Source: an uncultured Eubacterium sp. (GTDB lineage Bacteria; Bacillota; Clostridia; Lachnospirales; Lachnospiraceae). From it: a DNA stretch of 64,000 nt. How positions within the stretch are numbered: the stretch's first letter is position 1; each line of letters begins with the position of its first letter. Below, piece after piece: positions 32,447 through 64,000 of the stretch. The stretch spans positions 1,560 to 65,559 of the forward strand of contig CAKRDZ010000010.1 of assembly GCA_934316845.1 (NCBI GenBank), given 5' to 3'. The position numbers were made by a program, and so were the translations under genes. The notes under the pieces are model-generated. The model did no database searches, had not been told where the DNA came from, and saw nothing but the letters and a program-made list of their open reading frames with translations.

Positions 32447-33274
32447 TTATAGATTTTTTTTACGATATTCGCTCGGTGATAATCCCGTTTCTCTTTTAAA
32501 AAATTTTGAAAAAGAAAATGGGTCATTATAGCCGACAGAATAGGCGACATTTTGCACAGAAATAGAACTGTCTTTGAGCAACTCTTTTGCTTTATTCATG
32601 CGGAAAGACAAAAGGTATTCCTGGGGTGTCATATCGGTTGCATTTTTAAATAATTTACTAAGATAAGAGCGGTCTAAGCCGCAATGTTTGGCGATTTCAC
32701 TGATACGAATAGGCTCGCTGTATTTTTGTGATATATAGTTGATAACCTTGCGTAAATATTTTAAAGAGTTATCTATTTCAAAAGAGGATGCCTGCTTCGG
32801 AGTATCTTGTATCATGTATTCAAATAGAAGATAAAATTGTGACATACAATAACAATTTTTGTCAGAATTTGTCAAAATATTATTGAGGCACACTCCGATG
32901 TTTAATCCGTTGGTAACGGGAGTAAAAACAGGATTTTCTTTCGTAATACCACATTTTGTCAGTAATTCTTCCACTTTATTTCCCTGAAACTGAATCCATA
33001 TATAATTCCACGGTGTTTTGGCATCTGCTTCATAATATCCGAGCGTACCTGCCGGGATGACAAATGCCTGTTCCGCTGTCACAGGGTATTCCTGATCATT
33101 CATGTAGAGCGTTCCACTGCCCTCATAAATGTAATGCAGTATATATAAATCACGTATGATGGGACCATATCCGTAAGAAGGATTACACTTTTGACAGCCG
33201 ACCTCATAGAGACGCAGATCCTCATAAGAGTCAAAATTGAAAAAGTAAACTTCATCGTAAGTTCGGACAGCCAT
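32447..33274 (-). CDS. AraC family transcriptional regulator (cupin plus HTH)
   Basis: The C-terminal AraC HTH is present (ISEIAKHCGLDRSYLSKLFK...GYNDPFSFSKFFKRETGLSPSEYR). Start at the ATG at 33274 after GGAGGGA. Confidence 0.88.
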   Translation of the reverse strand: MAVRTYDEVYFFNFDSYEDLRLYEVGCQKCNPSYGYGPIIRDLYILHYIYEGSGTLYMNDQEYPVTAEQAFVIPAGTLGYYEADAKTPWNYIWIQFQGNKVEELLTKCGITKENPVFTPVTNGLNIGVCLNNILTNSDKNCYCMSQFYLLFEYMIQDTPKQASSFEIDNSLKYLRKVINYISQKYSEPIRISEIAKHCGLDRSYLSKLFKNATDMTPQEYLLSFRMNKAKELLKDSSISVQNVAYSVGYNDPFSFSKFFKRETGLSPSEYRKKNL

Positions 33275-48327: not shown

Positions 48328-51132
48328 GTGAGTGAGAAATCCATGGTGATCAACCCAAACAAGATTTCCATTGACTTTAAAGACACCCCTTATGCAAAGG
48401 GAAACGGGGCGTCGGTACATACAGCCAGGGACGGCAGCATTTCCAATTATGGAATTGAATACACAAAGGATTGTGCGGTACAAAAGGAAATGGATTCCAA
48501 TATGATCTATACCGGCACAACTCAGAATGAAATCGTGAGTGAAGTGACGAAAAATCTTCCGGAGGACACATTTGATCCGGCGGATTTTATCAGCCAGAGC
48601 ATCAACGGCGAGGACGCCAAAGAGATCGAGGGTGACGGAAGTATTTTGGAGGAGTACGTCGATTCGACGCTGGAGCGGGCGATAGAGAAAGTAAAGACAG
48701 AGCGGAAGGCCAATAGCGACGCGCTTGACAGGTACACCGAAAAGGAAAAAGAAAAACAGGAATTTTCGGATGAATTACAGGCACAGATCGAGATGGCTGC
48801 GCAGCTGGCGGCAAAAATGCCGGGACTTGGTGATGCGGCTGTCAAATATTACATAGAGCAGAAAGCAGACCTGACACCGGCTGCTATTGGCAACAGTGCG
48901 GGTGTTACGGCAATGCCGGCTGTGGCAGAGCGTGCTTCTTATGAAGAAATGAAGCCGCAGATCGACCATATTTTAGAGGAAAATGGTCTGCAGGAAGATC
49001 CGGCAGCGGAAGAAGCGGCAAAATTTTTGTACGAAAAAGATATTCCGGTTACGCCGGAGAATATAGAAAAATATACAACGTGGCAGGAGACAAAAGAGAC
49101 TCCACAGGAGGTCATCAACGAGCGTATCCGGGATGCTGTGCGCGAAGGAACGGTTCCACAGCAGGCCGATATCAGTCAGATTTCTTATAAAGAAGCGGCA
49201 CAAAAGTGGGATACCCTCAAAAATGTGACCGAGGATGAACTGCGGGCATTTTATCCGGAGGAAGCCGGTTTTATCACGGCCAAACGACAGATGGAAGAGA
49301 TCCGTCTGAAAATGACTGCGGAAGCGGCCGGCAAGATGGAACGAAAAGGGATTCACGTTGACATTTCCAACCTGACGCAGATTGTGGAAGAGTTAAAGCA
49401 GATGGAAAAAGAAGCCTGCCGGAATGTATTTGATGAGAATAATATCTCGTATGGGCAGGAGCAGGTTGACCGGATGGCGTCTGCACTGCAGGCGAAAGAA
49501 CAGATATGGCAGGCTCCGGCAGCGATTCTTGGAAAAACGATCGGGCAGGCCGCAGACCTGACATTACATAATATGTCAGAAATTGGAAAAACTGCCATCC
49601 AGGAAGAACTTTCAAAGAATTATGAAGCGGTGGGTACGCAGGTGCGGAAAGATTTGGGAGATTCCATGACAAAGGCATTTCAAAATGTGGATGCGATACT
49701 GGAAGATCTCGGATTTGACAAGACGTCCGCGAACCAGCGTGCAGTTCGGATTCTCGCTTATAATCAGATGGAGATTACAAAAGATGCGGTGCTTTCGATG
49801 AAAGATTACGATGCCAAAGTGACATCGGTTCTGGAGCAGATGAAACCAGCAGCAGTAGCAAAGATGATCGAGAAGCAGCAAAATCCACTGGAGATGACAA
49901 TGGATGAGATTGAGGATGCTCTTCAGGAAATTAGCGGAGAAATGGCAGAGGATGACACGCCGCTCCGTAAATTTCTCTGGAAACTTGATCACCAGGGAGC
50001 GATCACGCCGGAAGAGAGAAAGAGCATGATCGGTATCTACCGGTTGATTGATAAAGTGGAAAAAAGCGATGGCGCCGTCATTGGACAATTGGTAAAAGAA
50101 GGAAGAGAATTGACATTTTCCTCGTTGTTGTCTGCCGTTCGGACCAGACGTGCAGAAGGAAAAGAATTTGAGATCAACGATGAGTTTGGAAGTCTGGAGA
50201 GCCGGACGAGCGGCAGAGAGACAATCAGTGAGCAGATTGGTGCGGCCTTTGGCAGCCGCGTAATCCATCAGCTGAAAAGAGAGTTATCACCGGGGGCGCT
50301 ACGGCAGTCAGAGGATGATATGGCTTGCGAGCAGGTTTTAGAGGCCTGTGAGACACCGGAAAGCCAGGCAGAAGAGGCAGCTTATTATGAGATGCTGGCA
50401 CAAAATATAAAAGAGATCGCATCATCCGGCGACGAGATGGTACATCGATGTCTCGAAGCGGCAGGGATTCCTGCGACACTGCAAAATATCCGCGAGATGA
50501 AAGCCTATCTGACAAGAGAAAAGACGGAAAGCGATATTCTGTTTACGGAGGAAGAGAGCGAGTCAGTACTCGATGTCATGGATCAGCCCGAAGAACTTGA
50601 GAGCATGCTGGATACTTTGGATCAGGAACATTTGCAGGAGATCGAAAGCCGCAAGCAGGCAGACGATATTACATATGATACGCTGCAGAATCTGATCCGG
50701 ATGGCGGGAAGCATTTCCTTTTACCGCCAGATGCGGCAGCAGACCAATACGTTTTCTGTGCCGATCATGACAGACCAGGGAGTTACGTCTTGTCATGTAA
50801 CGGTACTGCAGGGTCAGGAATCTGAAAAGGGAACCGTTGAAATCTCACTAAATTCGGAAAAAATTGGAAAATTGCAGGCGACGTTTAAAGTCGTGGAGAA
50901 CAGAGTGAGTGGGTTTGTAACCTGCGAAAATGAGCAGGATATCAGTGAACTCACACAGGATATTGAAAAGGACTTGGAGATGAATGGATTTGCGATGGAA
51001 CGCATGGATGTGGCAAGAGGAGCCAGACATTCATTTCAGGCAGGAGATAAAGAACAAACAGCAAACAGCAGACTGTATCAGGTGGCAAAGATTGTAGTCA
51101 CAAATGTGCAGAGAAAGGAAGCAGATCAATGA
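48328..51132 (+). CDS. Large acidic protein (about 930 aa) with a FliK-like C-terminal region; flagellar-associated, function unknown
   Basis: Long E/A/Q-rich helical protein. The C-terminus ...GTVEISLNSEKIGKLQATFKVVENRVSGFVTCENEQDISELTQDIEKDLEMNGF... resembles the FliK hook-length-control C-terminal domain pattern. Its stop overlaps the flagellin ATG. Start is the GTG at 48328 or the ATG at 48343. Confidence 0.6.
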   Translation: MSEKSMVINPNKISIDFKDTPYAKGNGASVHTARDGSISNYGIEYTKDCAVQKEMDSNMIYTGTTQNEIVSEVTKNLPEDTFDPADFISQSINGEDAKEIEGDGSILEEYVDSTLERAIEKVKTERKANSDALDRYTEKEKEKQEFSDELQAQIEMAAQLAAKMPGLGDAAVKYYIEQKADLTPAAIGNSAGVTAMPAVAERASYEEMKPQIDHILEENGLQEDPAAEEAAKFLYEKDIPVTPENIEKYTTWQETKETPQEVINERIRDAVREGTVPQQADISQISYKEAAQKWDTLKNVTEDELRAFYPEEAGFITAKRQMEEIRLKMTAEAAGKMERKGIHVDISNLTQIVEELKQMEKEACRNVFDENNISYGQEQVDRMASALQAKEQIWQAPAAILGKTIGQAADLTLHNMSEIGKTAIQEELSKNYEAVGTQVRKDLGDSMTKAFQNVDAILEDLGFDKTSANQRAVRILAYNQMEITKDAVLSMKDYDAKVTSVLEQMKPAAVAKMIEKQQNPLEMTMDEIEDALQEISGEMAEDDTPLRKFLWKLDHQGAITPEERKSMIGIYRLIDKVEKSDGAVIGQLVKEGRELTFSSLLSAVRTRRAEGKEFEINDEFGSLESRTSGRETISEQIGAAFGSRVIHQLKRELSPGALRQSEDDMACEQVLEACETPESQAEEAAYYEMLAQNIKEIASSGDEMVHRCLEAAGIPATLQNIREMKAYLTREKTESDILFTEEESESVLDVMDQPEELESMLDTLDQEHLQEIESRKQADDITYDTLQNLIRMAGSISFYRQMRQQTNTFSVPIMTDQGVTSCHVTVLQGQESEKGTVEISLNSEKIGKLQATFKVVENRVSGFVTCENEQDISELTQDIEKDLEMNGFAMERMDVARGARHSFQAGDKEQTANSRLYQVAKIVVTNVQRKEADQ

Positions 51133-52559
51133 AAATAAATACGAACATATCCGCCCTTTTGGCGACAGGAAATTTACATCGGACGGAGGACCGGCTGACG
51201 ACCAGTCTGACAAGACTTTCTTCCGGATACCGTATCAATAAGGCGGCAGATGATGCTGCCGGAATGGCCATTTCGCAGAAAATGCATGCGCAGATCCGTG
51301 GATTGGAGCGTGCCTCCCGTAATGGATCCGATGGTATCTCCTTTATACAGACCGCGGAAGGTGCATTGGCAGAGGTAGAAAGCATGCTTCAAAGATGCCG
51401 TGAACTTTCTGTGCAGGCATCCAATGATGTAACGACGTTAGATGATAAAAAGGCGATCCAGCAGGAGATTGAGGCGTTGATGGGCGAGATCGACCGTCTT
51501 GCTTCGGACACTGAATTTAATACAAAAAGCATTCTGGATGGTACGTGCTGCCGCCAGACATCTTCCAGCAATACCGGCGTAAGTCTTATTTCGATGACCG
51601 ATGATGTTGCTTTGACAACGTATAGTCTGACGGTTACGCAGGCATCGACAAAGACCAACGTAACGACCGGCACCCTTGGCATGGGTGAAAAAGATAAATT
51701 TACAAAAGATGGGAAAATCCAGATCAATGGTCAGACCATCGAGATCAAACAAGGCGAGACTTTGGAAGAGGCTTATGCGAAAATCCGTGACTGTTGTGAG
51801 AGCATGAATATCGATGTTCTCCCTGTCAATGGAAAAGATGCCAATGGCAATCCAAAAGAGGTAGCTTTGAGCGGAGCCACCAGTTTGTATTTTGAATCCA
51901 AGATCTACGGAGCATCAAGAAATATTGAGATCACAACGGACGATCCGGAACTTGCCACAAAATTAGGAGTCAACGGAGCCGTGATCACACAGGGAAAAGA
52001 TGCCATTGTATCTCTGGATACGGATTCCGGATTTACCAAGACGGCAACCACATTTATCGATGGAAACAGAGTAACGGTATCCGACCGCGGCGGTTTTGAG
52101 ATGATCTTTAACGTAGCAGGAGCAGAGGCCGGTATGGATGCGGATGTAACCGTATTGGATGCCGGATTTGTTGCGATCCAGATTGGATCGAATGAGGGTC
52201 AGAGCATTGACATTTCGATTCCGGCAGTTACGTGCGAATCCCTTAACATTAATTATTGTAATGTATGTACTTTTGACGGAGCGCAGGAGAGTATTACGTT
52301 GTTTGACGAAGCCATCAGTCAGGTGTCTGCCGTGCGCGCTAAATTAGGTGCTTATGAAAACCGTCTGGATTCTGCGACGACAAGTCTGGATACGACTTCC
52401 CAGAATCTGACAGAAGCTTGTTCCCGTATCGAGGATGTAGATATGGCGGCTGAAATGACCGAATATACGCAGTTGACCGTGCTCAGCCAGGCAGGAACTT
52501 CCATGCTCGCACAGGCCAATAACCGTCCACAGACGATTTTGCAGCTTCTTCAGGGATAA
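51129..52559 (+). CDS. fliC: Flagellin (476 aa)
   Basis: N-terminus MKINTNISALLA...LSSGYRINKAADDAAGMAISQKM...GISFIQTAEGAL and C-terminus ...MAAEMTEYTQLTVLSQAGTSMLAQANNRPQTILQLLQG. Confidence 0.95.
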   Translation: MKINTNISALLATGNLHRTEDRLTTSLTRLSSGYRINKAADDAAGMAISQKMHAQIRGLERASRNGSDGISFIQTAEGALAEVESMLQRCRELSVQASNDVTTLDDKKAIQQEIEALMGEIDRLASDTEFNTKSILDGTCCRQTSSSNTGVSLISMTDDVALTTYSLTVTQASTKTNVTTGTLGMGEKDKFTKDGKIQINGQTIEIKQGETLEEAYAKIRDCCESMNIDVLPVNGKDANGNPKEVALSGATSLYFESKIYGASRNIEITTDDPELATKLGVNGAVITQGKDAIVSLDTDSGFTKTATTFIDGNRVTVSDRGGFEMIFNVAGAEAGMDADVTVLDAGFVAIQIGSNEGQSIDISIPAVTCESLNINYCNVCTFDGAQESITLFDEAISQVSAVRAKLGAYENRLDSATTSLDTTSQNLTEACSRIEDVDMAAEMTEYTQLTVLSQAGTSMLAQANNRPQTILQLLQG

Positions 52560-52594
52560 TTTGACCGGTATATCGAAAGCGAGTGGTGAATGCA

Positions 52595-53074
52595 ATGAAT
52601 AAAGAAAAATTGAATGCTTATGCAGCGCGTGTATCACAGGCAAACCGAAGCGAACTGGTTGTGATCATTTACGAGGCATTTCTGGATAGTGTAAAAGAAG
52701 GCGACGAGCAGATGAAACAGGGAAATATGCCAGCCTGCCGTCAGGAGATGGAACGTGCCAGAGGATTTCTGACCGAATTGATGGGAAGTCTGGATTTTCA
52801 ATATGAAATTTCCTATTATCTTCGCCGGTTATATATCTATGCCTATCATGAATTGTGTCAGGGCATGGCATTTCGGGACAGCGAGAGATATGCGCACGCA
52901 GTACAGATCATGGAAAAGCTGCTTCCTGCTTTCCGCGAGGTCGCAAAGCAGGATACGTCAGAAGCTGTCATGAAAAATGTGCAGCAGATCTATGCCGGTC
53001 TTACCTATGGCCGGGGAAGTCTACACGAGACGATCGGTGTAGACGTTGGAAAAGAACGGGGTTTTGAGGCTTAA
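52595..53074 (+). CDS. fliS: Flagellar export chaperone FliS-like protein
   Basis: NAYAARVSQANRSELVVIIYEAFLDSV...ARGFLTELMGSLD fits the FliS four-helix pattern. Located directly after flagellin. Confidence 0.7.
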   Translation: MNKEKLNAYAARVSQANRSELVVIIYEAFLDSVKEGDEQMKQGNMPACRQEMERARGFLTELMGSLDFQYEISYYLRRLYIYAYHELCQGMAFRDSERYAHAVQIMEKLLPAFREVAKQDTSEAVMKNVQQIYAGLTYGRGSLHETIGVDVGKERGFEA

Positions 53075-54055: not shown

Positions 54056-56629
54056 ATGAAGAGAAAATTGAGCAGTATTGTGTTAGCCACGGCGCTTGTT
54101 GTCTCTTTAGCGGCCGGAGCAGGTGGAGAAGATGTGCAGGCGGCAAAGAAGGCAAAGCTTGGAACGAAGAAAATTACGTTAATACAAGGCAAGACCAAAA
54201 AGATCAAAGTAAAGAACAAAAAGAAAGGCTGCCGTTATACGTTTACTTCCAATAAAAAGAAAGTAGCAACGGTAACCAAAAAAGGAAAGGTAAAGGCGGT
54301 AGCTGCGGGTACAGCGAAAATTACCGTCAAAGAAGTTTCAAAGAAAGGTAAAAAACGGAAAATTGGTGTGGTAAAGGTTCTGGTAAAAAAGAACAGCCAG
54401 ACAACAGTTACACCGCAAACTTCCACAAATCCACAGACATCAACGACACCGGGAGGGGCAAACGTGACAGCGACACCAAAGGCACCGACAGCATCGGCAA
54501 CACCAAAGGTATCGGAAGCACCGACAGCACCGACAGTATCGGCAACACCAAAGGTATCGGAAGCACCGACGGTATCGGCAACACCAAGTACAAAACCACA
54601 GGAATCCAAAGAGCCGACAAAAGGAACAAAATCGGTATCTGTATATTTGGATGAGATTAAAGAAGCAAATAAAATTGCCGAAGTAAATGGTCCGGGATTG
54701 GATCCGACGGCAGCTCCGACAGAAACACCTGCAGGAGAGGCGACACCGGAACCTACACCGGCAGTTCTTGTAAATACTACGATGGAAGATAACAATACAG
54801 ATCCGATCGAAAAACGCGGAGATGTTTCCATTTCCGTTGTAGAAGACGGTGCGAATGGAACAAGCAAGAGCATCAAAGTTACCGGCCGTAAAGAGGACTG
54901 GCACGGTGCAGGCATTGATGTAACTTCTTTTGCAGAGACCGATAATGATTATGAAATCACATTCTATGCGAAACAGTCTACAGGAGAAGACAGTCAGATC
55001 GATCTTTCCATGCAGTATGTCAATGGAAGCGGCGAGACAAAATACGGTGGCATCAAGACGTTTGATCTTGCAAACGATACCTGGACAAAATGTCAGGCAA
55101 AAATGACCATTCCGGAGCACAACGGACAGATCATTATTTACTGGCAGTCGGTATATCAGTCCAACAACTCTATGGATTTCTATCTGGATGAAGTGTCGAT
55201 CACCGGAGTGGCAAAAGCAGTGGCAGGAGAAGATTACCCTGATCTTTCTCTTGGTTTGGGAAAAACAACTGTTGGAAATCCTATTATGACTTCCCGTCTG
55301 ACAGCAGATCCATATGCAATGGAATACAATGGAAGAATCTATGTATATGGTACAAACGATTCCCAGCAGTATGAGAAAACACCGGATGCAGACAACAATT
55401 ACTCAAAAATTAATACAATTAATGTATATTCATCCGCTGACATGGTAAACTGGACAGATCATGGTGCAATCCGGGTAGCTGGTTCTAACGGAGCAGCAAA
55501 ATGGGCATCAAATTCCTGGGCACCGGCAGCATGTCATAAGACAATTAATGGAAAAGAAAAATTCTTCCTGTATTTCGCTGACAATGGCAGTGGAATTGGA
55601 GTATTGGAAGCAGACAGTCCAACCGGTCCATGGAGAGACCCAATTGGAAAACAGATAATCAGCCGTGAGACTCCGGGATGTTCCGGATCCGAGATTGGCT
55701 GGCTGTTTGACCCGGCCGTGTTGGTAGATGATGACGGAACCGGATATTTGTACTTTGGAGGAATTGGTAACACAGCAGGCAAGCCGGACGATTTTATCAA
55801 GAATCCAAAATGCGGACGAGTTGTAAAACTTGCAGATGATATGGTAAGTCTGGCTGGTGATCCTGTCACAATTGACGCACCATATATGTTTGAAGATTCC
55901 GGAATCAACAAAATCGGAGACAAATATTATTACAGCTACTGCACAAACTGGACAAACGTCTCCGGACGAGATGAAACTATACCGGCAGCAAATATTGCCG
56001 TAATGGAAAGTGATAATCCAATGACAGGATTCAAATTTGTCGGCTGTGTATTGAAAAATCCGGGAACTTATTTCGGAGCAAGTGGAAATAATCACCATTG
56101 TTTTGCAGAGTTCAAGGGAACTTGGTATGCCTTCTACCATACAAAGAAAGATACCCTGGCATTGGGAACCAAAGCTGATTACAGAACAACATATGCAGAC
56201 ATCTTGAACTTGGGAGAAAATGGAAATTTCACAAACAAAGATGGTTCAGTGGCAGACACAAAAATGACGGCAGCAGGAGTAACCGCGGTTGGAACCGTAA
56301 ATCCTTATAATACGATAGAAGCAGAATCTTTCGCAATTGCAAACCAGGTAGGAACGATCGCAAATAACGAAGCAAGTTCCAATGCATTGTGGAATGGTGC
56401 AAATTATTCTCTTTACAATACAGAAGCAGGAAGTTATATCGGTGTTGCCAATGTGGATTTTGGTGATGACGGAGCTTCTACCGTAAGTATGAAATTAAGC
56501 GACACTTCGATGACAGAGTATAAAGAATGTATCGCGCAGCTTAGTCAGAAAGTAACCGGAAAACATACCGTATACTTTGTATTTGAGAAAACAAATATTT
56601 TGACGGACAGCTGGAAATTTGATAAATAA
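54056..56629 (+). CDS. Secreted multidomain GH43 glycoside hydrolase (Big_2, P/T linker, CBM, GH43, CBM6-like)
   Basis: Signal peptide. Lysine-rich Big_2 module (KITLIQGKTKKIKV...). The repeats TPKVSEAPT follow. GH43 core GNPIMTSRLTADPYAMEYNGRIYVYGTND, then C-terminal NPYNTIEAESF (CBM6-like). Confidence 0.88.
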   Translation: MKRKLSSIVLATALVVSLAAGAGGEDVQAAKKAKLGTKKITLIQGKTKKIKVKNKKKGCRYTFTSNKKKVATVTKKGKVKAVAAGTAKITVKEVSKKGKKRKIGVVKVLVKKNSQTTVTPQTSTNPQTSTTPGGANVTATPKAPTASATPKVSEAPTAPTVSATPKVSEAPTVSATPSTKPQESKEPTKGTKSVSVYLDEIKEANKIAEVNGPGLDPTAAPTETPAGEATPEPTPAVLVNTTMEDNNTDPIEKRGDVSISVVEDGANGTSKSIKVTGRKEDWHGAGIDVTSFAETDNDYEITFYAKQSTGEDSQIDLSMQYVNGSGETKYGGIKTFDLANDTWTKCQAKMTIPEHNGQIIIYWQSVYQSNNSMDFYLDEVSITGVAKAVAGEDYPDLSLGLGKTTVGNPIMTSRLTADPYAMEYNGRIYVYGTNDSQQYEKTPDADNNYSKINTINVYSSADMVNWTDHGAIRVAGSNGAAKWASNSWAPAACHKTINGKEKFFLYFADNGSGIGVLEADSPTGPWRDPIGKQIISRETPGCSGSEIGWLFDPAVLVDDDGTGYLYFGGIGNTAGKPDDFIKNPKCGRVVKLADDMVSLAGDPVTIDAPYMFEDSGINKIGDKYYYSYCTNWTNVSGRDETIPAANIAVMESDNPMTGFKFVGCVLKNPGTYFGASGNNHHCFAEFKGTWYAFYHTKKDTLALGTKADYRTTYADILNLGENGNFTNKDGSVADTKMTAAGVTAVGTVNPYNTIEAESFAIANQVGTIANNEASSNALWNGANYSLYNTEAGSYIGVANVDFGDDGASTVSMKLSDTSMTEYKECIAQLSQKVTGKHTVYFVFEKTNILTDSWKFDK

Positions 56630-56686
56630 AAAATAAGAGACAATACTCTTACCCCTAATCCTTATATAATTATAGTTTTTCGTAAC

Positions 56687-56722
56687 AAAGGAGCTGTGTA
56701 AATGATACGCAGCTCCTTTTTG
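56687..56722. terminator. Bidirectional terminator between the GH43 gene and map
   Basis: AAAGGAGCTG (56687-56696) pairs with CAGCTCCTTT (56710-56719), followed by TTT. Confidence 0.75.
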
Positions 56723-56770
56723 CGATGCGCCTTGCGGCGCACGTTTCTTTACAATACAATTTTGTAGTTC

Positions 56771-57646
56771 TTAGCGGGAAAGAATTTCGTTTCCGGTTTC
56801 CGTGATAACGAGAGTGTATTCCCATTGGGCAGAAGGTTTGCCGTCTTCGGTATAGATCGTCCAGCCGTCATCTTCATCGCAGAATATATCGGAAGTTCCC
56901 ATATTGATCATTGGTTCGATGGTGATCGTCATACCTGGGACAAGAAGCATTCCCGTGCCCGGTTCGCCGATATGCGGAACCCACGGTTCTTCGTGAAATT
57001 CCACGCCGACACCGTGTCCGCCGATCTCTACGACAACACTGTAGCCGTTTTCTTTGGCGCGCTTATTGATCGCATATCCAAAATCTCCCAGTGTCGTCCA
57101 AGGTTTTGCGATACCGACCGCTTCGTCGAGACATTCTTTCGTAACCTGAACTAGTTTTTTCTTTTCTTCGCTGACTTCGCCGATTAAAAACATACGGGAA
57201 GCATCGCCGTAGAAGCCGTCTACGATCGTAGTACAGTCTACATTTACAATTTCACCACTCTGCAAAATGCGTTCCGGATCCGGAATTCCATGGCATACCA
57301 CTTCGTCAATGGAAGTGCAGACATTTTTGGGATATCCCTGATAGCCGAGGCAGGCACAGATGCCGCCAAGTTCTGCCGTTCGTTTGGCTGCAAGGTCGTC
57401 AATTTCCTGTGTTGACACGCCCTCGCCGATCATTTCCGCGACGGCGTCAAGTACCATCGAGTTGATCTCGCCGGCTTTACGTATGCCCTCAATCTGCGCC
57501 GGCGTTTTGATGATACTGCGAGGCGGTTCTTCCGCGTGCGGATACGTCAGCATATAATGTTCAATCTTTTCGTCAAATGCCATATGACAGCTTTTATATT
57601 TTCTGCCGCTGCCACACCAGCATGCTTCATTTCTACCTAATTTCAC
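56771..57646 (-). CDS. map: Type I methionine aminopeptidase with an N-terminal SEC-C zinc motif
   Basis: MKLGRNEACWCGSGRKYKSCH (SEC-C) is followed by a pita-bread fold with metal ligands (VCHGIP, VDCT..DGFYGD, GHGVG, TIEPM, EYT). Confidence 0.93.
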   Translation of the reverse strand: MKLGRNEACWCGSGRKYKSCHMAFDEKIEHYMLTYPHAEEPPRSIIKTPAQIEGIRKAGEINSMVLDAVAEMIGEGVSTQEIDDLAAKRTAELGGICACLGYQGYPKNVCTSIDEVVCHGIPDPERILQSGEIVNVDCTTIVDGFYGDASRMFLIGEVSEEKKKLVQVTKECLDEAVGIAKPWTTLGDFGYAINKRAKENGYSVVVEIGGHGVGVEFHEEPWVPHIGEPGTGMLLVPGMTITIEPMINMGTSDIFCDEDDGWTIYTEDGKPSAQWEYTLVITETGNEILSR

Positions 57647-57666
57647 GATTATGTCATCTTCTTTCT

Positions 57667-58389
57667 TTATAATGTAATGATATCATTGTCTTTTAATAAT
57701 ATATACAATTCTTTTAATAAGGCGACGGTGTGAGTGATCGCCTGTCTGGCAAATGTTGGATAATCCATGTGCCCGGAGTTGTCTGCTTTATCGGAGATTG
57801 CGCGGATAATTAAAAATGGAACGTGGTTGAGGTAGGCTGTTTGTGCCATTGCCGCCCCTTCCATCTCGGCGCAGTCCCCTTCAAACGTATCGATCAGATA
57901 CTGCTTTTTTTCACCATCCGCAATGAACTGGTCACCGCTCACTACTTTCCCAATATGGCAGATTATGTCAGAATTTGCTTTTTCACACGCCTCTTTTGCA
58001 AGTTTGACAAGGGTTTCATCTGCGGCAAAAATGGATTCTTCCATCCGCGGGATGATGCCGACCGGGTCTCCGAGTGGCGAAACATCCATGTCGTGCTGCT
58101 GGGCGCAGCGTGAAAGCACGATGTCACCAATTTCCAATGTATTGTTGAGCGAGCCGGCAACTCCTGTATTTATCACGGCATCAACCGAGAAAATGTCAAT
58201 CAGGATCTGCGTGCAGACTGCCATATTTACTTTCCCAATGCCGCTTACGACAACGACGGTTTTTAATCCCCACAGATTTCCTTCTACAAAAGTCATGCCT
58301 GCTTTGGTTATTTCTGTTGTATCGGTCATCTGTTCTTTCAGAATGGCGACTTCCTCATCCATCGCGCCGATCAATCCTATGGTATTCAT
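57667..58389 (-). CDS. mtnN: 5'-methylthioadenosine/S-adenosylhomocysteine nucleosidase
   Basis: MNTIGLIGAMDEEV, SGIGKVNMA, GVAGSL and EMEGAAMAQ are present. Confidence 0.93.
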   Translation of the reverse strand: MNTIGLIGAMDEEVAILKEQMTDTTEITKAGMTFVEGNLWGLKTVVVVSGIGKVNMAVCTQILIDIFSVDAVINTGVAGSLNNTLEIGDIVLSRCAQQHDMDVSPLGDPVGIIPRMEESIFAADETLVKLAKEACEKANSDIICHIGKVVSGDQFIADGEKKQYLIDTFEGDCAEMEGAAMAQTAYLNHVPFLIIRAISDKADNSGHMDYPTFARQAITHTVALLKELYILLKDNDIITL

Positions 58390-58527
58390 GCAACTACCTC
58401 CAAAAATTTTACTACTTTGTAGTATAGCATAAATTGCAAAAGAATGCTACGAAATTATAAAAGCAGTTGTTTTGTCCTGCGGTTTGAGATATAATAAAAG
58501 TATCAAAAGGAACGGAGGAAATGGTTT

Positions 58528-59436
58528 ATGAAGGAACAGCTTTTTAGTAACGAGGTGATCTTGTCATGGCTGCAGTATTATGCCCAAAATACGGCGATTG
58601 ACCTCGAACATGTTAAGATGATAGATATCACCAAAAAGAATAAAAATGTGATCCCGACCGTGGAGGCGCATAAGACGACTCTGGTGTTTACCAATGCGGG
58701 CGTAGATGATATTTTTTATCGACTTTGGAATGCCGGCCTTGGTGAATGCGACGTCTGGTACAATGAAGGTTCCAAACCGGAAGGCGAGATTCTGAACAGC
58801 AAAGTAAAGGATATGATCGATCGTGGGATCAATGCTTCCGCCGGGATGCTCATTATCAATCCAAATGCCCGCAATACGGCGAAGATCGGCATGGGAAATG
58901 AAATGTTCCAGAAGGGATCGATTCACTATGTGGGAAGTGAGATCCGTGCTGTCATTCTCAATAAAATGATGGTGGATACACAGGATAACCTCTGTGTGAT
59001 CAGCGGAGAAAGTATTGCCATCGAGGCGGCGCTGATCGCAGCCGAGGGAACGGTGATCGCCGTGGAATACAGCCGCGCTGACCGTGAGACGATGGAGGAC
59101 AATGTGGAGCATTTTGGTCTCAGCAATGTGCAGATCGTCGATCATGTAGATGAAGAGAGCATGAAGGACTGCCCTGTACCGGACACGGTATTTATGGTGG
59201 CTTCTGCCAGCATGGATCAGGAACTTGCGTATCTGACCGCAAAAAATCCGCAGATCAATGTAGTTGTCTATACTTTGGATTTTCAAGTGGCAGCAGGCGC
59301 AAAGGCAATACTGGAATCTCATGGCATTGAAGATGTTGAGGTGATTCAGATCGCGGTATCGACTTTGTCAAGCCGCAACTCATTTAAGCAGCAGCCGGCA
59401 CCGTGGATCATCAGCGGACGCGGCGGTAAGAAATAA
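58528..59436 (+). CDS. CbiE/CbiT (precorrin-6Y methyltransferase)-like protein with a degenerate SAM motif
   Basis: Two-domain layout. The segment EIRAVILNKMMV...VIAVEYSRADRETMEDNVEHFGLSNVQIV resembles CbiT, but the GxGxG SAM loop is replaced (ISGESIAIE). No other cobalamin genes nearby. Confidence 0.45.
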   Translation: MKEQLFSNEVILSWLQYYAQNTAIDLEHVKMIDITKKNKNVIPTVEAHKTTLVFTNAGVDDIFYRLWNAGLGECDVWYNEGSKPEGEILNSKVKDMIDRGINASAGMLIINPNARNTAKIGMGNEMFQKGSIHYVGSEIRAVILNKMMVDTQDNLCVISGESIAIEAALIAAEGTVIAVEYSRADRETMEDNVEHFGLSNVQIVDHVDEESMKDCPVPDTVFMVASASMDQELAYLTAKNPQINVVVYTLDFQVAAGAKAILESHGIEDVEVIQIAVSTLSSRNSFKQQPAPWIISGRGGKK

Positions 59437-59482
59437 GAGCAGTTACGAATAATCATTAAAAAAATGTGAAAAATAAAAAAGG

Positions 59483-59523
59483 AAGAAGCGATAATTCAGG
59501 AATATGGATCGTCGCTTCTTTTC
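59483..59523 (+). terminator. Terminator after the CbiE/T-like gene
   Basis: AAGAAGCGA (59483-59491) pairs with TCGCTTCTT (59512-59520), followed by TTC. Confidence 0.5.
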
Positions 59524-59535
59524 TAGTTATAAAAT

Positions 59536-59580
59536 AAGAAAAAATGCAACATTTGTTACTATAATGTTGCATTTTTTCTT
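59536..59580. repeat. Recombinase core-type site A: 17-bp perfect inverted arms around an 11-nt asymmetric spacer
   Basis: AAGAAAAAATGCAACAT (59536-59552), spacer TTGTTACTATA (59553-59563), ATGTTGCATTTTTTCTT (59564-59580). Its reverse complement shares 20 identical nt with site B. Confidence 0.7.
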
Positions 59581-59590
59581 TGTATCATAT

Positions 59591-59617
59591 ATATCGGCAG
59601 ATCCCAAAAATACTTTA
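59591..59617 (-). promoter_or_regulatory. Sigma-D (FliA, sigma-28) type promoter, orphan in this orientation
   Basis: The minus strand reads TAAA (59617-59614), a 15-nt spacer, then GCCGATAT (59598-59591), an exact match to the Bacillus sigma-D consensus TAAA-N15-GCCGATAT. It points leftwards into site A and no gene follows. Confidence 0.6.
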
Positions 59618-59624
59618 GTCCTTT

Positions 59625-60206
59625 TTACAAAAAAGTTTCTAAAAAAACTTTATCTTTTTCTAACTGGTCGATACCAAGGTATCTTTTTGTAATCTCGTAC
59701 GACGAATGATTGTATATGCTCATTAGGAGAGCCGGCGGTGTTCCGTTCTTCCAGGCAAAGTAGCCAAACGTTTTCCGGAGTGAATGACAGCTGATGTTTT
59801 GCTCAAATCCATAATAATTTGCCGCCTTTTTTATGATTCGGAATGCCTGCGACCGGCTTAAAGGTTCCGGCCCGCTTTTTTGACCCTGAAAGATATAGTC
59901 ATTTTTATGATAATGTAAAAGAGTTTTTCGATAATATTCTAAAGCTTCTTTTGCATGTTGATTCACAATAAGAATATTCTCCTTCCCTGTTTTTTGTTCC
60001 CATACGGCTATGTGTTCACGATAGCGATGATTTTGATCTGAATAAACATCGTTCCAACAGAGCCCTAAGATGTCACTAATGCGAAGTGCTGAATTCAATC
60101 CGAACACAATAAGTGCGTAATTTCGAGGGTTTGGTTCAATGTCTCGATAGTAATTTCGAAATTTTTTCAACATTTCTTCATCTTTGATTGGTTGTGTTTT
60201 ACTCAT
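59625..60206 (-). CDS. Small tyrosine recombinase (193 aa, FimB/FimE-sized), copy 1
   Basis: MSKTQPIKDEEMLKKF... after GGAGG. The catalytic signature is present: NSALRISDIL (Arg I), HSLRKTFGYFAW (His-x-x-Arg) and HSSYEITKRYLG (His...Tyr). Confidence 0.88.
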   Translation of the reverse strand: MSKTQPIKDEEMLKKFRNYYRDIEPNPRNYALIVFGLNSALRISDILGLCWNDVYSDQNHRYREHIAVWEQKTGKENILIVNQHAKEALEYYRKTLLHYHKNDYIFQGQKSGPEPLSRSQAFRIIKKAANYYGFEQNISCHSLRKTFGYFAWKNGTPPALLMSIYNHSSYEITKRYLGIDQLEKDKVFLETFL

Positions 60207-60279
60207 TTTTTCCTCCATTCTAAAGTGCATGATGCACTTCGTCCTATTTGTTTAGATGCCTCATCCAAACATAGCTTAC

Positions 60280-60308
60280 ATGCAACATTATAGTAACAAT
60301 TGTTGTGG
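60280..60308. repeat. Recombinase core-type site B, inverted relative to A, with a degenerate outer arm
   Basis: ATGCAACAT (60280-60288), spacer TATAGTAACAA (60289-60299, the reverse complement of the A spacer), TTGTTGTGG (60300-60308). It overlaps a minus-strand promoter TTGCCA (60315-60310)-17-TATAAT (60292-60287) facing the recombinase gene. Confidence 0.65.
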
Positions 60309-60357
60309 CTGGCAAATTTTTCTAGATCCAACGGCACAGCAGAGGGAGGTGGCAAGG

Positions 60358-60600
60358 ATGCTGCGACTCACACTTAGCACAGAAGAATATCTGATGCTTG
60401 GCGATGATATCAAGATTGTATTCCTGGGAGGAAGCAACAATCATCTTCGAATTATGGTGGATGCTCCCAAAGAGGTCGACATCGTTCGAAGTAAAGTGCT
60501 TGAAAAGGCACACCCGGAAATTCGGGAGAAACGGCCGAAATATTACGCCGAACCGGAACTTCCGGAGCGCTATCGCAAGAAAAAGGGCGAGACAAAGTAA
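60358..60600 (+). CDS. csrA: Carbon storage regulator CsrA homologue (80 aa, extended basic C-terminus)
   Basis: MLRLTLSTEEYLMLGDDIKIVFLGGSNNHLRIMVDAPKEVDIVRSKV matches the CsrA core (MLILTRK..E.I.IGD.I.I.VL...G..VRIGI.AP..V.I.R.E). GGGAGG upstream. Directly precedes a flagellin gene, as csrA-hag does in Bacillus. Confidence 0.85.
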   Translation: MLRLTLSTEEYLMLGDDIKIVFLGGSNNHLRIMVDAPKEVDIVRSKVLEKAHPEIREKRPKYYAEPELPERYRKKKGETK

Positions 60601-60747
60601 CCGGATAATAATCGGTGTATGTGTGCTGACCGGAGGGCCCAAGGCTGGCACCGGCACCGGGGATTATAAATAAGAAAATGAAATTTCTACCCAAACGGAT
60701 TTGGGAAGAACATAAGCCGTAAGGCGTAAAACAAGGAGGTAATTATT

Positions 60748-61932
60748 ATGATAGTACAACACAACATTACATCAATGAATGCCAACAGACAGTTGGGAAT
60801 CGTAGGAAACAACCTTTCAAAATCTACTGAGAAACTTTCCAGTGGATACAGAATCAATCGTGCCGCTGATGATGCAGCAGGTCTTGCTATTTCTGAAAAA
60901 ATGCGTGCTCAGGTTCGTGGTTTGAATCGTGCTTCTGACAACGCACAGGATGGTATCTCTTTGATTCAGACCGCTGAAGGTGCTATGGATCAGAAACATG
61001 CGATCTTGCAGAGAACTCGTGAACTGATGGTTCAGGCTTCTAACTCCGGTGTGTTGGATGGAACTCAGGAAAATGATTTCCAGAAGATTCAGGATGAGAT
61101 TGATAACCTGAAATCGGAGTACAATCGTATTGATACAGATACAGAATTCAACAAGAAAAAGTTACTGGATGGATCTTACAGTGCTCAGTGGCTGCAGGTA
61201 GGTGCCAATTCTGGCCAGGGTATCAGTGTATCCATTAAATCTACAAGTTGGGATAATACTTTGTATATGACAGAGGATTCAACTGGTACATCAGGTGCGG
61301 CAAACAATATAATTGATGGTAAGAAATATAATCCTGACGTATTTACATTGGAAGATACTACATCTAAAACGGTTAATGGTAAGAAGTTTGTAAAACAGGC
61401 AGATGGAAAATACAAGGCTGATGGCGTAGATGAGGATTTGGTAACATTAACAGGAAAAATGAAGGACATTGATGATACTCAAGATCTTACAAATGCAGAT
61501 AATAAAGCATCTGTAGAAGCTGCTCAAAAACTTGGATATTCTGTTGATACAACGAGTGCTACTACTGCCAAAGCGAGCGTTGCTGCTGCAAAAACTGCAT
61601 TGGGTAAAGTGAAGGATAAAACGGAAACGGCTGTTAAGACAGTGAATGGTTCAGCAATTTCAAGCTTGATTGACAAAGTTGACACCATGATCAAAGACGT
61701 TACCACAGAGCGTTCCAAACTCGGTGCTGTTCAGAACCGTCTTGAGTACACCGTTAAGGTTGATGACAACACAGCTGAAAACATGCAGTCCGCTGAATCC
61801 CGTATCCGTGATACTGATATGGCAGATGAGATGACAAGATTCTCTAAAGAGAGTATCTTGCAGCAGGCAGCTACTTCTATGCTGGCTCAGGCAAATCAGG
61901 CAAACCAGGGAGTTCTTTCCTTATTGCAGTAA
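60748..61932 (+). CDS. fliC: Flagellin (394 aa), second paralogue
   Basis: MIVQHNITSMNANRQLG...LSSGYRINRAADDAAGLAISEKM...GISLIQTAEGAM and C-terminus ...MADEMTRFSKESILQQAATSMLAQANQANQGVLSLLQ. Confidence 0.95.
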   Translation: MIVQHNITSMNANRQLGIVGNNLSKSTEKLSSGYRINRAADDAAGLAISEKMRAQVRGLNRASDNAQDGISLIQTAEGAMDQKHAILQRTRELMVQASNSGVLDGTQENDFQKIQDEIDNLKSEYNRIDTDTEFNKKKLLDGSYSAQWLQVGANSGQGISVSIKSTSWDNTLYMTEDSTGTSGAANNIIDGKKYNPDVFTLEDTTSKTVNGKKFVKQADGKYKADGVDEDLVTLTGKMKDIDDTQDLTNADNKASVEAAQKLGYSVDTTSATTAKASVAAAKTALGKVKDKTETAVKTVNGSAISSLIDKVDTMIKDVTTERSKLGAVQNRLEYTVKVDDNTAENMQSAESRIRDTDMADEMTRFSKESILQQAATSMLAQANQANQGVLSLLQ

Positions 61933-61992
61933 TTTGCTTAACTTCATTCAATTTGCGTGAAGCGGTTTGATGTAAAGGATATGTACAAAACA

Positions 61993-62036
61993 AAAGAGTC
62001 ATTGCTTATCAATGTTGGTTAGCAATGGCTCTTTTC
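61993..62036. terminator. Bidirectional terminator between flagellin 2 and the Rpn-like gene
   Basis: AAAGAGTCATTGCT (61993-62006) pairs with AGCAATGGCTCTTT (62021-62034), including one G-U pair, flanked by A and T tracts. Confidence 0.75.
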
Positions 62037-62054
62037 GTATATAACTATATATTG

Positions 62055-63173
62055 TTAGCTGTGTTGTTCTTTTTGCAATTTCTCAATCAGGGCATAAGCT
62101 TTCTTGAGTTCATCGCTCTGATTCTGGATGGTGTCTTCTTTCTGTTTCAACTCATCACTCTGGCTCTGGATGGTGTCTTCTTTCAGCTTGAGTTCATCGC
62201 TCTGATTCTGGATGGTGTCTTCTTTTAGTTTTAGTTCATTGTCTTTTTCCTGAATGATCTCTCTTGCTTCATCCAAATCCTTCTGCATTTCATCAACCAT
62301 ATATTCCGCGGTATTATGATCCATCTCGGCTAATTCCTTAGAAAACATATCCATCACCCTTTCTGTGTTTTGACAGAGACGGAAGATATCCTCATACATT
62401 TCCTTAAAAATCGGAAATTTTTGGATGAGATTGTAAATCTGCTCCGGGTCGTCTGTGCTTAAAAAGGTAAGCCAGGCTTCCAACTCTGTCTGGATAGTTT
62501 TATTTTCCATGGTTTTATGGAAAATGTCAAGGGGTATGAATAAAAAATTCTGCAAAAGATTCAGTTCCAGTTTGGTGTCGGAGACAGCATGGAAGGAATG
62601 CAGGCAGGCATCCGGAAATGCATGAAATTCTTTTGGACTGTGTTCAAAGAAAACAATGACATGAACCGGGCGCATATTTTTGAAGTTAAAGTTCTTTGAA
62701 TTGTATTTTTCGCGGTCTTTTACGCGTTTGTATTGGCGGAGGAGAAGATCTGCGGAGTAGCACGCTGCGCGCTCGCCCGGAAAGCGGTAGCCAATCTTTT
62801 GAACCTCAATGTTGGCAATGCTTCCGTCTTCAAATTCAACGACGATATCGGTGATTAAAAGGGTTGGTTCCGCAGCGATACGAGTACTGTCATTTGGCAG
62901 GACTTTTAAGACCCTGACTTTCTTTTTGAGTAAAATGGATAAAAGACAGCTGAGTCTCTGTGGGGCGTATTCCGGGTTAAAAACTTCTTTGAAAAAGCAG
63001 TCAAAAAGGATTTTCACGCCTTTTTGCCCGGTACAGATATCCAAAAAGGATTTTTTCTGATCTTCTTTCCAGCTATTGTAAATGCTGCTTAATTTCCAGT
63101 TGTTCTGGATTTCGTTTAAAATCTCTTCGCGTTTACGAAAAGAAAAAAGGTTTTGCAGTGTTTTTTTGTGCAT
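62055..63173 (-). CDS. Rpn-family PD-(D/E)XK nuclease (recombination-promoting nuclease / putative transposase) with a repetitive coiled-coil tail
   Basis: The N-terminal region ...LFDCFFKEVFNPEYAPQRLSCLLSILL...LITDIVVEFEDGSIANIEVQKIGY is typical of the PDDEXK_2/Rpn family. The C-terminus has 3 x 14-aa repeats DELKLKEDTIQNQS. Confidence 0.75.
   Translation of the reverse strand: MHKKTLQNLFSFRKREEILNEIQNNWKLSSIYNSWKEDQKKSFLDICTGQKGVKILFDCFFKEVFNPEYAPQRLSCLLSILLKKKVRVLKVLPNDSTRIAAEPTLLITDIVVEFEDGSIANIEVQKIGYRFPGERAACYSADLLLRQYKRVKDREKYNSKNFNFKNMRPVHVIVFFEHSPKEFHAFPDACLHSFHAVSDTKLELNLLQNFLFIPLDIFHKTMENKTIQTELEAWLTFLSTDDPEQIYNLIQKFPIFKEMYEDIFRLCQNTERVMDMFSKELAEMDHNTAEYMVDEMQKDLDEAREIIQEKDNELKLKEDTIQNQSDELKLKEDTIQSQSDELKQKEDTIQNQSDELKKAYALIEKLQKEQHS
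62103..62228. repeat. Three 42-bp in-frame tandem repeats inside the Rpn-like gene
   Basis: GAGTTCATCGCTCTGATTCTGGATGGTGTCTTCTTT recurs at 62106 and 62190, with a diverged copy between them. Encodes the DELKxKEDTIQxQS heptad-like tail. Confidence 0.85.
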
Positions 63174-63302
63174 AAATTGCCTCCTTAAGTGTTTTGTTAA
63201 TTGTTACACATTGGTTTTGGGTTTTTTAATTGTAGGGAAATTAAACATAAAAATGCACAAAATAAATGAACATAAAGAAAATAGATTTTCTTTGTGCTGA
63301 CT

Positions 63303-63332
63303 ATGATACGGCATTTAGGGAGAAATGTCAAG
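63303..63332 (-). promoter_or_regulatory. Sigma-A type promoter facing the Rpn-like gene
   Basis: The minus strand reads TTGACA (63332-63327), an 18-nt spacer, then TATCAT (63308-63303). Confidence 0.5.
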
Positions 63333-63348
63333 AGGAAATTTTTCATAT

Positions 63349-63930
63349 TTAGTGGTAAATATCCAGATAGACCTGGTCTTTTTCTAATTGGTCAATTCCA
63401 AGATAACGTTTTGTAATTTCATAGGATGAGTGATTGTATATGCTCATTAGTAACGCGGGGGGTGTGCCTTGTTTCCAGGCAAAATATCCGAATGTTTTAC
63501 GCAGAGAGTGGCAGCTTATATGCTGTTCAAGTCCGCAGGCTTTAGCCGCTTTTTTGATAATACGAAATGCCTGACAGCGGCTGATTGCCTGGTCAGGATG
63601 TTTTTGACTTCGAAAGATGTAGTCCGTGCTGTCGAATTCAGAAAGTGTCTGTCGGTAGCTTTCTAATGCGTTTTGGGCATTTCTATTTAAAATAATAATA
63701 TTTTCTTTTCCTGTTTTTTGTTCTTTGATTGAAAGATGGTTGCGATATTTGTGAGTAGGCACCACATAAACATCGTCCCAATGCAGTGCAAGAATATCAC
63801 TGATTCGCAATGCCGAATTTAACCCAAATTCAATAAGTGCATAATTTCTTGGTTTATTTTCTATTGATATATAATAATTTCTGAATTTATTTAAATCATT
63901 CTCATTTTTGATTGGTTGTGTACAACTCAT
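63349..63930 (-). CDS. Small tyrosine recombinase (193 aa), copy 2, paralogue of 59625..60206
   Basis: MSCTQPIKNENDLNKF... after GGAGGA. It has the same catalytic motifs (NSALRISDIL, HSLRKTFGYFAW, HSSYEITKRYLG). The C-terminal 60 aa are nearly identical to copy 1. Confidence 0.88.
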   Translation of the reverse strand: MSCTQPIKNENDLNKFRNYYISIENKPRNYALIEFGLNSALRISDILALHWDDVYVVPTHKYRNHLSIKEQKTGKENIIILNRNAQNALESYRQTLSEFDSTDYIFRSQKHPDQAISRCQAFRIIKKAAKACGLEQHISCHSLRKTFGYFAWKQGTPPALLMSIYNHSSYEITKRYLGIDQLEKDQVYLDIYH

Positions 63931-63947
63931 TATATCCTCCAAATATA

Positions 63948-63977
63948 TTGCAACATCTTAGTAACAAATGTTGCATT
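63948..63977. repeat. Recombinase core-type site C, same orientation as B
   Basis: TTGCAACAT (63948-63956), spacer CTTAGTAACAA (63957-63967, 9/11 identical to the B spacer), ATGTTGCATT (63968-63977). It overlaps the minus-strand promoter TTGACG (63983-63978)-17-TAAGAT (63960-63955) of recombinase 2. Confidence 0.6.
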
Positions 63978-64000
63978 CGTCAACAATTTGATTGGTTAGA

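Follow-up and report, generated by a model that had tools for sequence, protein, structure and literature searches.

To our knowledge, Roseburia, Eubacterium and other Lachnospiraceae make flagellins that are major ligands of TLR5, immunodominant in inflammatory bowel disease and among the dominant bacterial antigens in Crohn's disease. How these commensals control which flagellin is displayed, or whether any is, is a question raised here by a stretch of 64,000 nucleotides (nt) from an uncultured Eubacterium sp. (assembly GCA_934316845.1, contig CAKRDZ010000010.1), which we call the window and whose source belongs to a species group like Roseburia sp. CAG:309. Near its right end, a 0.7-kb segment carries a gene for a small tyrosine recombinase, rec1, and a promoter of the type read by the flagellar sigma factor (sigma-D, or FliA), next to a pair of genes that encode a CsrA-family regulator and a flagellin. 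We think it likely that a site-specific inversion switch moves this single sigma-D promoter between a parked position and alternative csrA-flagellin cassettes. Behind that conclusion stand three compatible recombination sites, two natural inversions with breakpoints in the site cores, a promoter that travels with rec1, and an architecture that is conserved among related species.

A recombinase gene and a flagellar-type promoter between inverted sites

The central features of the window are the following.

59536-59580, no strand: site A, the "parking" site, AAGAAAAAATGCAACAT-TTGTTACTATA-ATGTTGCATTTTTTCTT, with perfect palindromic arms of 17/18 nt, A/T-flanked
59591-59617, minus strand: sigma-D/FliA-type promoter, TAAA-N15-GCCGATAT, inside the invertible segment and aimed at site A here
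59625-60206, minus strand: rec1, tyrosine recombinase of 193 amino acids (aa), catalytic domain only (PF00589), between A and B
60280-60308, no strand: site B, ATGCAACAT-TATAGTAACAA-TTGTTGTGG, the right-hand crossover of the 0.7-kb inversion
60358-60600, plus strand: csrA1, CsrA-family protein of 80 aa (PF02599, 65 bits), first gene of cassette 1
60601-60747, plus strand: leader between csrA1 and fla1; GGA motifs lie at the Shine-Dalgarno sequence and before it, and cassette 2 has a nearly identical leader
60748-61932, plus strand: fla1, flagellin of 394 aa (Flagellin_N and Flagellin_C), the cargo of cassette 1
63349-63930, minus strand: rec2, paralogous tyrosine recombinase of 193 aa (PF00589), 70% identical to rec1 in amino acid sequence
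63948-63976, no strand: site C, TTGCAACAT-CTTAGTAACAA-ATGTTGCAT, directly upstream of rec2

The core of site A has a 9-11-9 design, ATGCAACAT-TTGTTACTATA-ATGTTGCAT (59544-59572), and a repeat finder returned perfect 18-nt arms at the site. Site B has a perfect inner arm; its outer arm, on the csrA side, is degenerate and lacks a T-tract. The original prediction, drawn from the letters of the window and a list of open reading frames, held that A and B share a 20-nt inverted core with identical, inverted spacers. Sequence reading and a core search bear this out: the 20-mer ATGCAACATTATAGTAACAA stands at 59553-59572 on the minus strand and at 60280-60299 on the plus strand, with 0.01 matches expected by chance. 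The same prediction pictured two sites and two states, and here it must be enlarged, as a third site, C, was found and the system has at least three states. Site C is 93% complementary to site A across 29 nt in a repeat search. The spacers of B and C have the same polarity, that of A is opposite to both, and these three are the only 9-11-9 sites of this type in the window. The recombinase would bind sites of the form ATGCAACAT-N11-ATGTTGCAT, and the overlap region of strand exchange would fall within TTGTTACTA.

That rec1 is a tyrosine recombinase bracketed by sites, as had been proposed, is supported by Pfam and by its catalytic residues. PF00589 matches rec1 at 75.3 bits and rec2 at 87.7 bits (cut-off, 27.1 bits); it is the only Pfam match of rec1, which does not classify as a serine recombinase of the Hin/Gin kind. 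Residues R42, K72/K75, H141-x-x-R144, H167 and Y176 are invariant in 17 homologues, and those of rec1 align with their counterparts in archaeal XerA (PDB 5hxy), the closest solved structure at a weak match (E = 8e-5). The protein had also been called FimB/E-like. In size and domain content (no N-terminal DNA-binding domain) the comparison stands, but the curated NCBIfam models for FimB/FimE give it only 41.9 bits (NF007371; cut-off, 222) and 24.1 bits (NF007370; cut-off, 221). So far below the cut-offs, rec1 is not a member of the FimB/FimE family. The protein is 99% identical to the recombinase of Roseburia sp. CAG:309, and its exact sequence is indexed in 2192 blocks of public assemblies.

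Public contigs and species loci with which the window was compared carry labels such as L001 and L117. L117, a contig from a Hadza gut, matches positions 55348-64000 of the window at 99.85% when reverse-complemented and extends 7.9 kb further, and the window part plus these 7.9 kb makes up a 16.5-kb array. Beyond site C, L117 encodes csrA2, fla2 (395 aa) and a second gene of the PD-(D/E)XK type, followed by unrelated genes. CsrA2 differs from CsrA1 at one residue. The two flagellins are identical over their first 80 residues and about 95% identical at the C terminus, and their central parts are 20-40% identical; as read from the sequences, this is the usual pattern of antigenically distinct flagellins.

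Only one promoter of the flagellar type was found in this array. The match TAAA-N15-GCCGATAT is the sole exact one in 64 kb (0.03 expected; at least one match in 3 of 100 shuffles), and it is also the sole relaxed sigma-D match across the 16.5-kb array with its two cassettes. The form agrees with the predicted sigma-28 promoters, TAAA-N15-CCGATAT, of Roseburia and Eubacterium fliC genes (PMC3720852). Between site B and the flagellin start there is no sigma-D promoter, even by the relaxed pattern, and a pattern scan found no sigma-70-type promoter on the plus strand upstream of csrA1 or fla1. The original prediction had placed an exact sigma-D consensus at 59617..59591 on the minus strand and none in 60601..60747, and both statements held, the consensus being unique in the window. 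Ahead of an alpha-galactosidase gene, at 32631-32657, there is a sigma-D match with one mismatch, which was set aside as consistent with chance.

Two natural inversions in public assemblies

We refer to the arrangement of the window as state 0, to that after recombination between A and B (A x B) as state 1, and to that after recombination between A and C (A x C) as state 2. Exact look-ups of the rec1 and rec2 proteins in public assemblies returned ten places each, and a scan of metagenome contigs by exact core match gave 23 stretches, 20 of them classifiable. The 0.7-kb segment was present in both orientations in assemblies of the species group, with the promoter directed towards csrA-flagellin in about 30% of contigs. 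Three of the ten rec1 places were inverted (L001, L002 and L007), with the recombinase codirectional with csrA-flagellin, and the other seven were arranged as in the window. The classifiable metagenome contigs divided into 6 of 20 inverted and 14 of 20 as in the window. The A x B inversion was seen in L001, L002, L007, L011, L118, L119, L092, L094, L106, L107 and L109.

In the A x B contigs, BLAST alignments show flanks collinear with the window and 59547-60305 reversed. The alignment pieces overlap solely at 59547-59572 and 60280-60305, which are the cores. The inverted junction consists of the rec1 stop, TAAAGTATTTTTATGACCTGTCGATAT and ATGCAACATTATAGTAACAA-TTGTTGTGG, and the csrA ATG lies about 110 nt from the -10 element. 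The original prediction had foretold an A x B inversion that turns the promoter into csrA-flagellin through a hybrid site, and had suggested looking for both orientations among related genomes; the exact junction was found in natural contigs, and so were both orientations. The species representative of Roseburia sp. CAG:309 is in the ON state, and three sister genomes are parked. Moreover, the left flank of L007 (state 1) has 0 differences over 1939 nt from those of L004 and L008 (state 0). Thus, orientation is not fixed by lineage.

A second, larger inversion was found from the side of rec2. Among the rec2 places, the arrangement of the window recurs in L117 and the A x B inversion in L118 and L119, and four contigs (L120, L121, L122 and L125) carry an A x C inversion of 4.4 kb, in which site C is the crossover partner of A. 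Site A is the crossover point in both natural inversions. In the A x C contigs, rec2 and the PD-(D/E)XK gene come immediately after the 302-aa gene to the left of A, on the same strand as that gene. The left flank stops in BLAST alignments at the outer arm of A, and 20 nt on comes the end of the reversed csrA1-to-rec2 segment. The junction reads AAGAAAAAATGCAACAT-TTGTTACTAAG-ATGTTGCAA and runs into the rec2 ribosome-binding site; its parts are the outer arm of A, a spacer with its last two bases from C, and the inner arm of C. The crossover therefore fell inside the 18 nt common to A and the reverse complement of C. The A x C contigs have flanks that diverge by as much as 6%, and the event has therefore happened more than once. 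Its reciprocal product should place rec1 and the promoter before csrA2-fla2.

Inverted repeats, two orientations in nature and breakpoints within the repeats mark the 0.7-kb segment as a probable inverton. With at least three compatible sites and the alternative inversions A x B and A x C, the locus would also be a multi-site inversion system that delivers one promoter to alternative genes.

How the switch would work

The mobile unit would be rec1 together with the promoter just past its stop codon, and transcription would start about 10 nt before whichever site is the neighbour. In state 0, the predicted start lies near 59583, and the promoter would face the hairpin of A with its U-tail and, beyond it, a convergent gene. 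As neither cassette has a detectable promoter, both should be silent in this state. In state 1, the 0.7-kb inversion would direct the promoter rightwards into csrA1-fla1, by way of a hybrid site whose outer arm is degenerate and which lacks a U-tract. In state 2, the 4.4-kb inversion would carry the promoter and rec1 before csrA2-fla2, just past the window end, where fla2 would be expressed.

Folding of the leaders is consistent with this scheme. On the minus strand the parked leader forms a hairpin of 18 base pairs (bp) at -20.4 kcal/mol followed by a U-rich tail. The inverted leader of state 1, taken at the same length, reaches -9.9 kcal/mol and has no U-tract, and the predicted leader of state 2 would form an 11-bp hairpin, likewise with no U-tract. 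Transcription termination at site A is plausible.

The flagellins that would be switched share their termini and differ in the exposed central domain, and the device would therefore combine ON/OFF switching with an antigenic choice of accessory flagellin. In Bacillus subtilis, CsrA binds the hag leader and FliW antagonises CsrA. By analogy, the cassette CsrA probably acts in translational control of flagellin mRNAs. That it represses other flagellins, as FljA does in Salmonella, is speculation.

Conservation across the Lachnospiraceae

A profile built from 17 homologues detected at least 587 related loci in species-representative genomes, and the counts that follow rest on the best 80 of these, nearly all from Lachnospiraceae. 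A site pair was taken as a 9-11-9 site on either side of the gene, the two spacers being inverted copies of each other with 9/11 or more positions identical. A sigma-D promoter was taken as T[AT]AA-N14-16-N[CT]CGATA[TA] past the stop codon, on the same strand as the recombinase gene. Inverted site pairs were found in 58 of the 80 loci. The promoter pattern occurred on the recombinase strand in 54 of 80 loci, compared with one on the opposite strand and one in the upstream regions. Wherever both features were present, the promoter lay between the stop codon and the distal site (50 of 50 loci), and in 48 of these 50 the end of the -10 element was 16-21 nt from that site.

The surroundings of the two sites differ in a consistent way. 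In 52 of 58 loci, at least 5 of the 8 nt after the distal, parking site are T. Read as a transcript, the csrA-side site seldom has a U-rich outer flank, and the exceptions are loci in the ON orientation. A csrA and/or flagellin gene was divergent from the recombinase (parked) in about 61 loci and codirectional in about 7, and 12 had no cassette nearby. Genes next to the parked side are unrelated to one another (32 are convergent), and no conserved target gene was found there among the surveyed loci.

The same inversion distinguishes the members of three species pairs (L019/L020, L059/L054 and L064/L078). Two loci are toggle variants, with a flagellin gene on each side and no csrA: L031, from Eubacterium xylanophilum ATCC 35991 (4298-6329), and L035 (1596-3419). 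The paired flagellins are 83% identical in L031 and 55% identical in L035, with the differences mainly in the central domain. From their layout, inversion in the toggle variants would switch between two flagellins.

Expression of the recombinases

Both recombinase genes have a predicted promoter that is split by a recombination site, and a palindrome follows that of rec1.

60287-60315, minus strand: rec1 sigma-70-type promoter, TTGCCA-N17-TATAAT, 11/12 matches, the best in the region
63955-63983, minus strand: rec2 sigma-70-type promoter, TTGACG-N17-TAAGAT, which spans C as the rec1 promoter spans B
60223-60239, no strand: perfect palindrome AAGTGCAT-G-ATGCACTT, which lies in the 5' untranslated region of rec1, after site B and before the ribosome-binding site

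In the rec1 promoter, the -35 element lies outside the invertible element, the outer arm of B lies between the hexamers, and the -10 element lies in the spacer and inner arm. Since the promoter straddles the recombinase's own site, binding of the recombinase should repress its own synthesis. Recombination, in turn, replaces the -35 element (AGAAAA stands at that position of the exchanged site after A x B), and lower expression of that recombinase is therefore expected after switching. The original prediction that site B splits the recombinase promoter holds for this lineage and for site C; the layout is also present in L114 and in an 86%-identical relative, L116. It did not extend to the wider family, in which no conserved -35 was found at a fixed position outside the csrA-proximal site. 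We therefore rejected the split promoter as a family-wide feature and regard it as confined to this lineage and the paralogous site C. The palindrome might form a hairpin in the RNA or serve as an operator. For its part, rec2 has neither a distal site nor a sigma-D promoter of its own.

Alternative explanations and points against the switch

The simplest rival is a two-state ON/OFF inverton that serves cassette 1 only, with C the operator and promoter region of rec2 and the A x C inversions rare by-products with no regulatory purpose. A x B is indeed commoner than A x C, most species loci have one element beside one cassette, and the right junction of state 2 was absent from the contigs returned. 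Against this, 4 of 10 exact-rec2 places show A x C, and their backgrounds diverge by as much as 6%. In addition, no promoter belonging to cassette 2 itself was detected, the arms of site C are still perfect, and its central spacer is compatible with A. We consider this simpler switch unlikely. Another possibility is that the orientations are strain polymorphisms fixed by ancient or rare inversions, or assembly artefacts, rather than active phase variation, and it is true that the evidence consists of consensus contigs from different samples. Fixation is hard to square with identical flanks of 1939 nt attached to different states, with both inversions recurring in divergent backgrounds and an inversion in at least four species lineages, and with an intact recombinase gene and intact sites conserved across the family. 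As for artefacts, contig names (k141_, NODE_, contig_N) point to assemblers that presumably used k-mers longer than 20-29 nt, or to long reads; with repeats of 20-29 nt and k-mers of greater length, misassembly across the repeats is unlikely. Homologues known only from contigs of 766-859 nt were considered as a possible sign of heterogeneity within a sample and set aside, as the ends of these contigs lie off the repeats and their coverage is low. Fixed or artefactual orientations therefore seem to us very improbable. Least credible of all is that the flagellin link is incidental and that the element is chiefly a selfish or mobile recombinase module, or else serves to regulate its own recombinase or antisense transcripts that run into the neighbouring methyltransferase-like gene. 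The orientation-dependent recombinase promoter, the variable number of cassettes, the insertion sequence (IS) elements and PD-(D/E)XK transposase-like genes in the array, and the possibility that the direct repeats B and C excise a cassette would suit such a module. Its weakness is that the csrA-flagellin linkage is kept in most of the 80 species loci and the parked-side neighbour is not, that a flagellar-type promoter at a fixed distance from a site is of no obvious use to a selfish element, and that the toggle variants have flagellin genes on both sides.

Some observations nonetheless weigh against a switch that delivers the sigma-D promoter to alternative cassettes. The reciprocal junction of state 2 (rec1, promoter, site and csrA2) was in no contig returned by look-ups of the exact rec1 and csrA1 proteins, which gave states 0 and 1 only, and all of the orientation evidence comes from consensus assemblies of different samples. 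The closest relatives (L001-L013) have GTCGATAT rather than GCCGATAT as the -10 element just past the rec1 stop; they include contigs with an identical rec1 protein, and more distant species mostly have NCCGATAT. A terminator scanner made no call at site A, whose stem is A/T-rich and whose loop is 9-11 nt, and we attribute the miss to that stem and to a loop of more than 8 nt. The earlier description of A as terminator-like thus keeps its 18-bp hairpin and U-rich tail but lacks support from the scanner. Consensus matches and conservation are the grounds for supposing that the flagellar sigma factor uses the promoter, that transcription ends at A and that the cassettes are silent in state 0. 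Moreover, 22 of the 80 surveyed loci have no recognisable site pair, and 12 of 80 have no adjacent csrA or flagellin gene. Finally, the parked state predominates, which is unexpected with both recombinase promoters intact in it; autorepression or selection against flagellin expression may explain the excess.

Relation to known systems

The closest logic is that of hin-fljBA in Salmonella enterica. There too, a recombinase gene and an outward promoter lie inside the invertible segment. The promoter there drives, and here would drive, a flagellin operon with a post-transcriptional regulator (FljA there, CsrA here), and the outcome here would likewise be a choice between alternative flagellar antigens. 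Unlike the system described here, which has a tyrosine recombinase (PF00589), Hin is a serine invertase that needs a Fis-bound enhancer. A sigma-D-type promoter, three sites, at least three states that include a parked OFF state, and a regulator gene that precedes the flagellin gene also set this locus apart. The fimS switch of Escherichia coli is similar in that small tyrosine recombinases of about 200 aa with only a catalytic domain (FimB and FimE) invert a promoter, and in that recombinase expression, as predicted here, depends on orientation, which for FimE is known as "orientational control". FimB and FimE, however, are encoded outside their 314-bp element, which carries a sigma-70 promoter for fimbriae, whereas rec1 lies inside and inverts with the promoter.

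Delivery of one promoter to silent surface-antigen genes would be shared with the vpma, vsp and vsa loci of Mycoplasma (Xer1, HvsR) and with the sap locus of Campylobacter fetus, and in the mycoplasma loci a tyrosine recombinase is likewise encoded beside the array. Inversion at sap depends on RecA. Those loci vary lipoproteins or S-layer proteins and not flagellins, and they differ from this one in that here the recombinase gene travels with the promoter, the parked site is terminator-like, and a CsrA gene is linked. Inversions of different sizes among several sites that bring a single promoter to alternative genes have been termed "promoter addition" (PMC11868660). The RecV switch of Clostridioides difficile also belongs to the Clostridia, uses tyrosine-recombinase inversion and turns flagella ON or OFF (PMC5386303, PMC7446863). 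RecV, in contrast, is encoded elsewhere in the genome, its switch of 154 bp is part of the 5' leader of the early flgB operon and works through Rho once transcription has begun, and it governs a whole regulon and toxins rather than flagellin choice.

We found no published description of the present switch, including in a 2025 review of phase variation and in inverton surveys, the PhaseFinder catalogue (Science 2019) having lain outside the search; the original remark that the arrangement was not known to have been described agrees with this. It seems to be a new combination within invertible-promoter phase variation, in which the element itself encodes the tyrosine recombinase, the promoter is of the sigma-D type, several cassettes are targets and csrA is linked. 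It would unite features hitherto known separately, namely a recombinase inside the segment (Hin), a small tyrosine invertase (Fim), a promoter with several targets (Mycoplasma) and a site that doubles as a terminator.

If the switch operates as proposed, heritable and reversible switching at the DNA level would account for the varying amounts of flagellin in cultures and metagenomes. It might conceivably also account for fliC genes that have no identifiable promoter (PMC3720852). Switch state is a genotype measurable in existing metagenomic reads, and its relation to the immune status of the host could be followed there. Two cultured strains, E. xylanophilum ATCC 35991 and Acetatifactor aquisgranensis DSM 110981, are among those that bear the switch, as does a metagenome-assembled genome of Roseburia hominis, so the hypothesis can be tested now. 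A wider proposal is possible, though to our minds still short of probable: a flagellin-choice device widespread in the Lachnospiraceae, in which a recombinase-borne sigma-D promoter would be parked at a terminator site or delivered to any of several cassettes whose flagellins differ in the exposed domain, with some species toggling two flagellins. The cassette CsrA would silence competing flagellins so that each cell carries one type of filament, and the whole would be a multi-state tyrosine counterpart of Hin-FljA.

Cassette composition and neighbouring genes

The genes to the right of site B had been identified in the original prediction as csrA and flagellin, and Pfam agrees on both. One further gene lies between cassette 1 and rec2.

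62055-63173, minus strand: PD-(D/E)XK gene (PDDEXK_2, Rpn-like "transposase")

Its C terminus is encoded by 42-nt tandem repeats (62103-62239). A copy stands after each flagellin cassette, and the two copies are 99.4% identical in amino acid sequence. The gene may belong to the cassette unit or may favour the exchange of cassettes. Sites B and C are direct repeats, and recombination between them would excise csrA1-fla1-PDDEXK-rec2 as a circle. The number of cassettes varies among strains, with one, two or possibly more, and the arrays of L003 and L123 contain an IS3 and an ISL3 insertion, respectively.

To the left of site A, the 302-aa gene (58528-59436, plus strand) is convergent with the parked promoter and forms the conserved left boundary of the array in the species group. 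It has no Pfam match and a weak similarity to CbiT-like methyltransferases (46 bits; cut-off, 210). When 59300-64000 was scanned with Rfam, nothing reached the gathering score. A sub-threshold match to CsrC at 59333-59589 on the plus strand (22 bits against a gathering score of 61, E of about 0.001) is most likely noise from hairpins and GGA motifs; it spans the end of the 302-aa gene, the terminator of that gene and site A.

A third flagellin gene lies elsewhere in the window, in the region 48328-53074. It occupies 51129-52559 on the plus strand, encodes 476 aa that are 46% identical to fla1, and is preceded by a DUF6240/FliK-like gene and followed by fliS. No sigma-D consensus stands directly upstream of it. 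The third flagellin is probably the resident flagellin.

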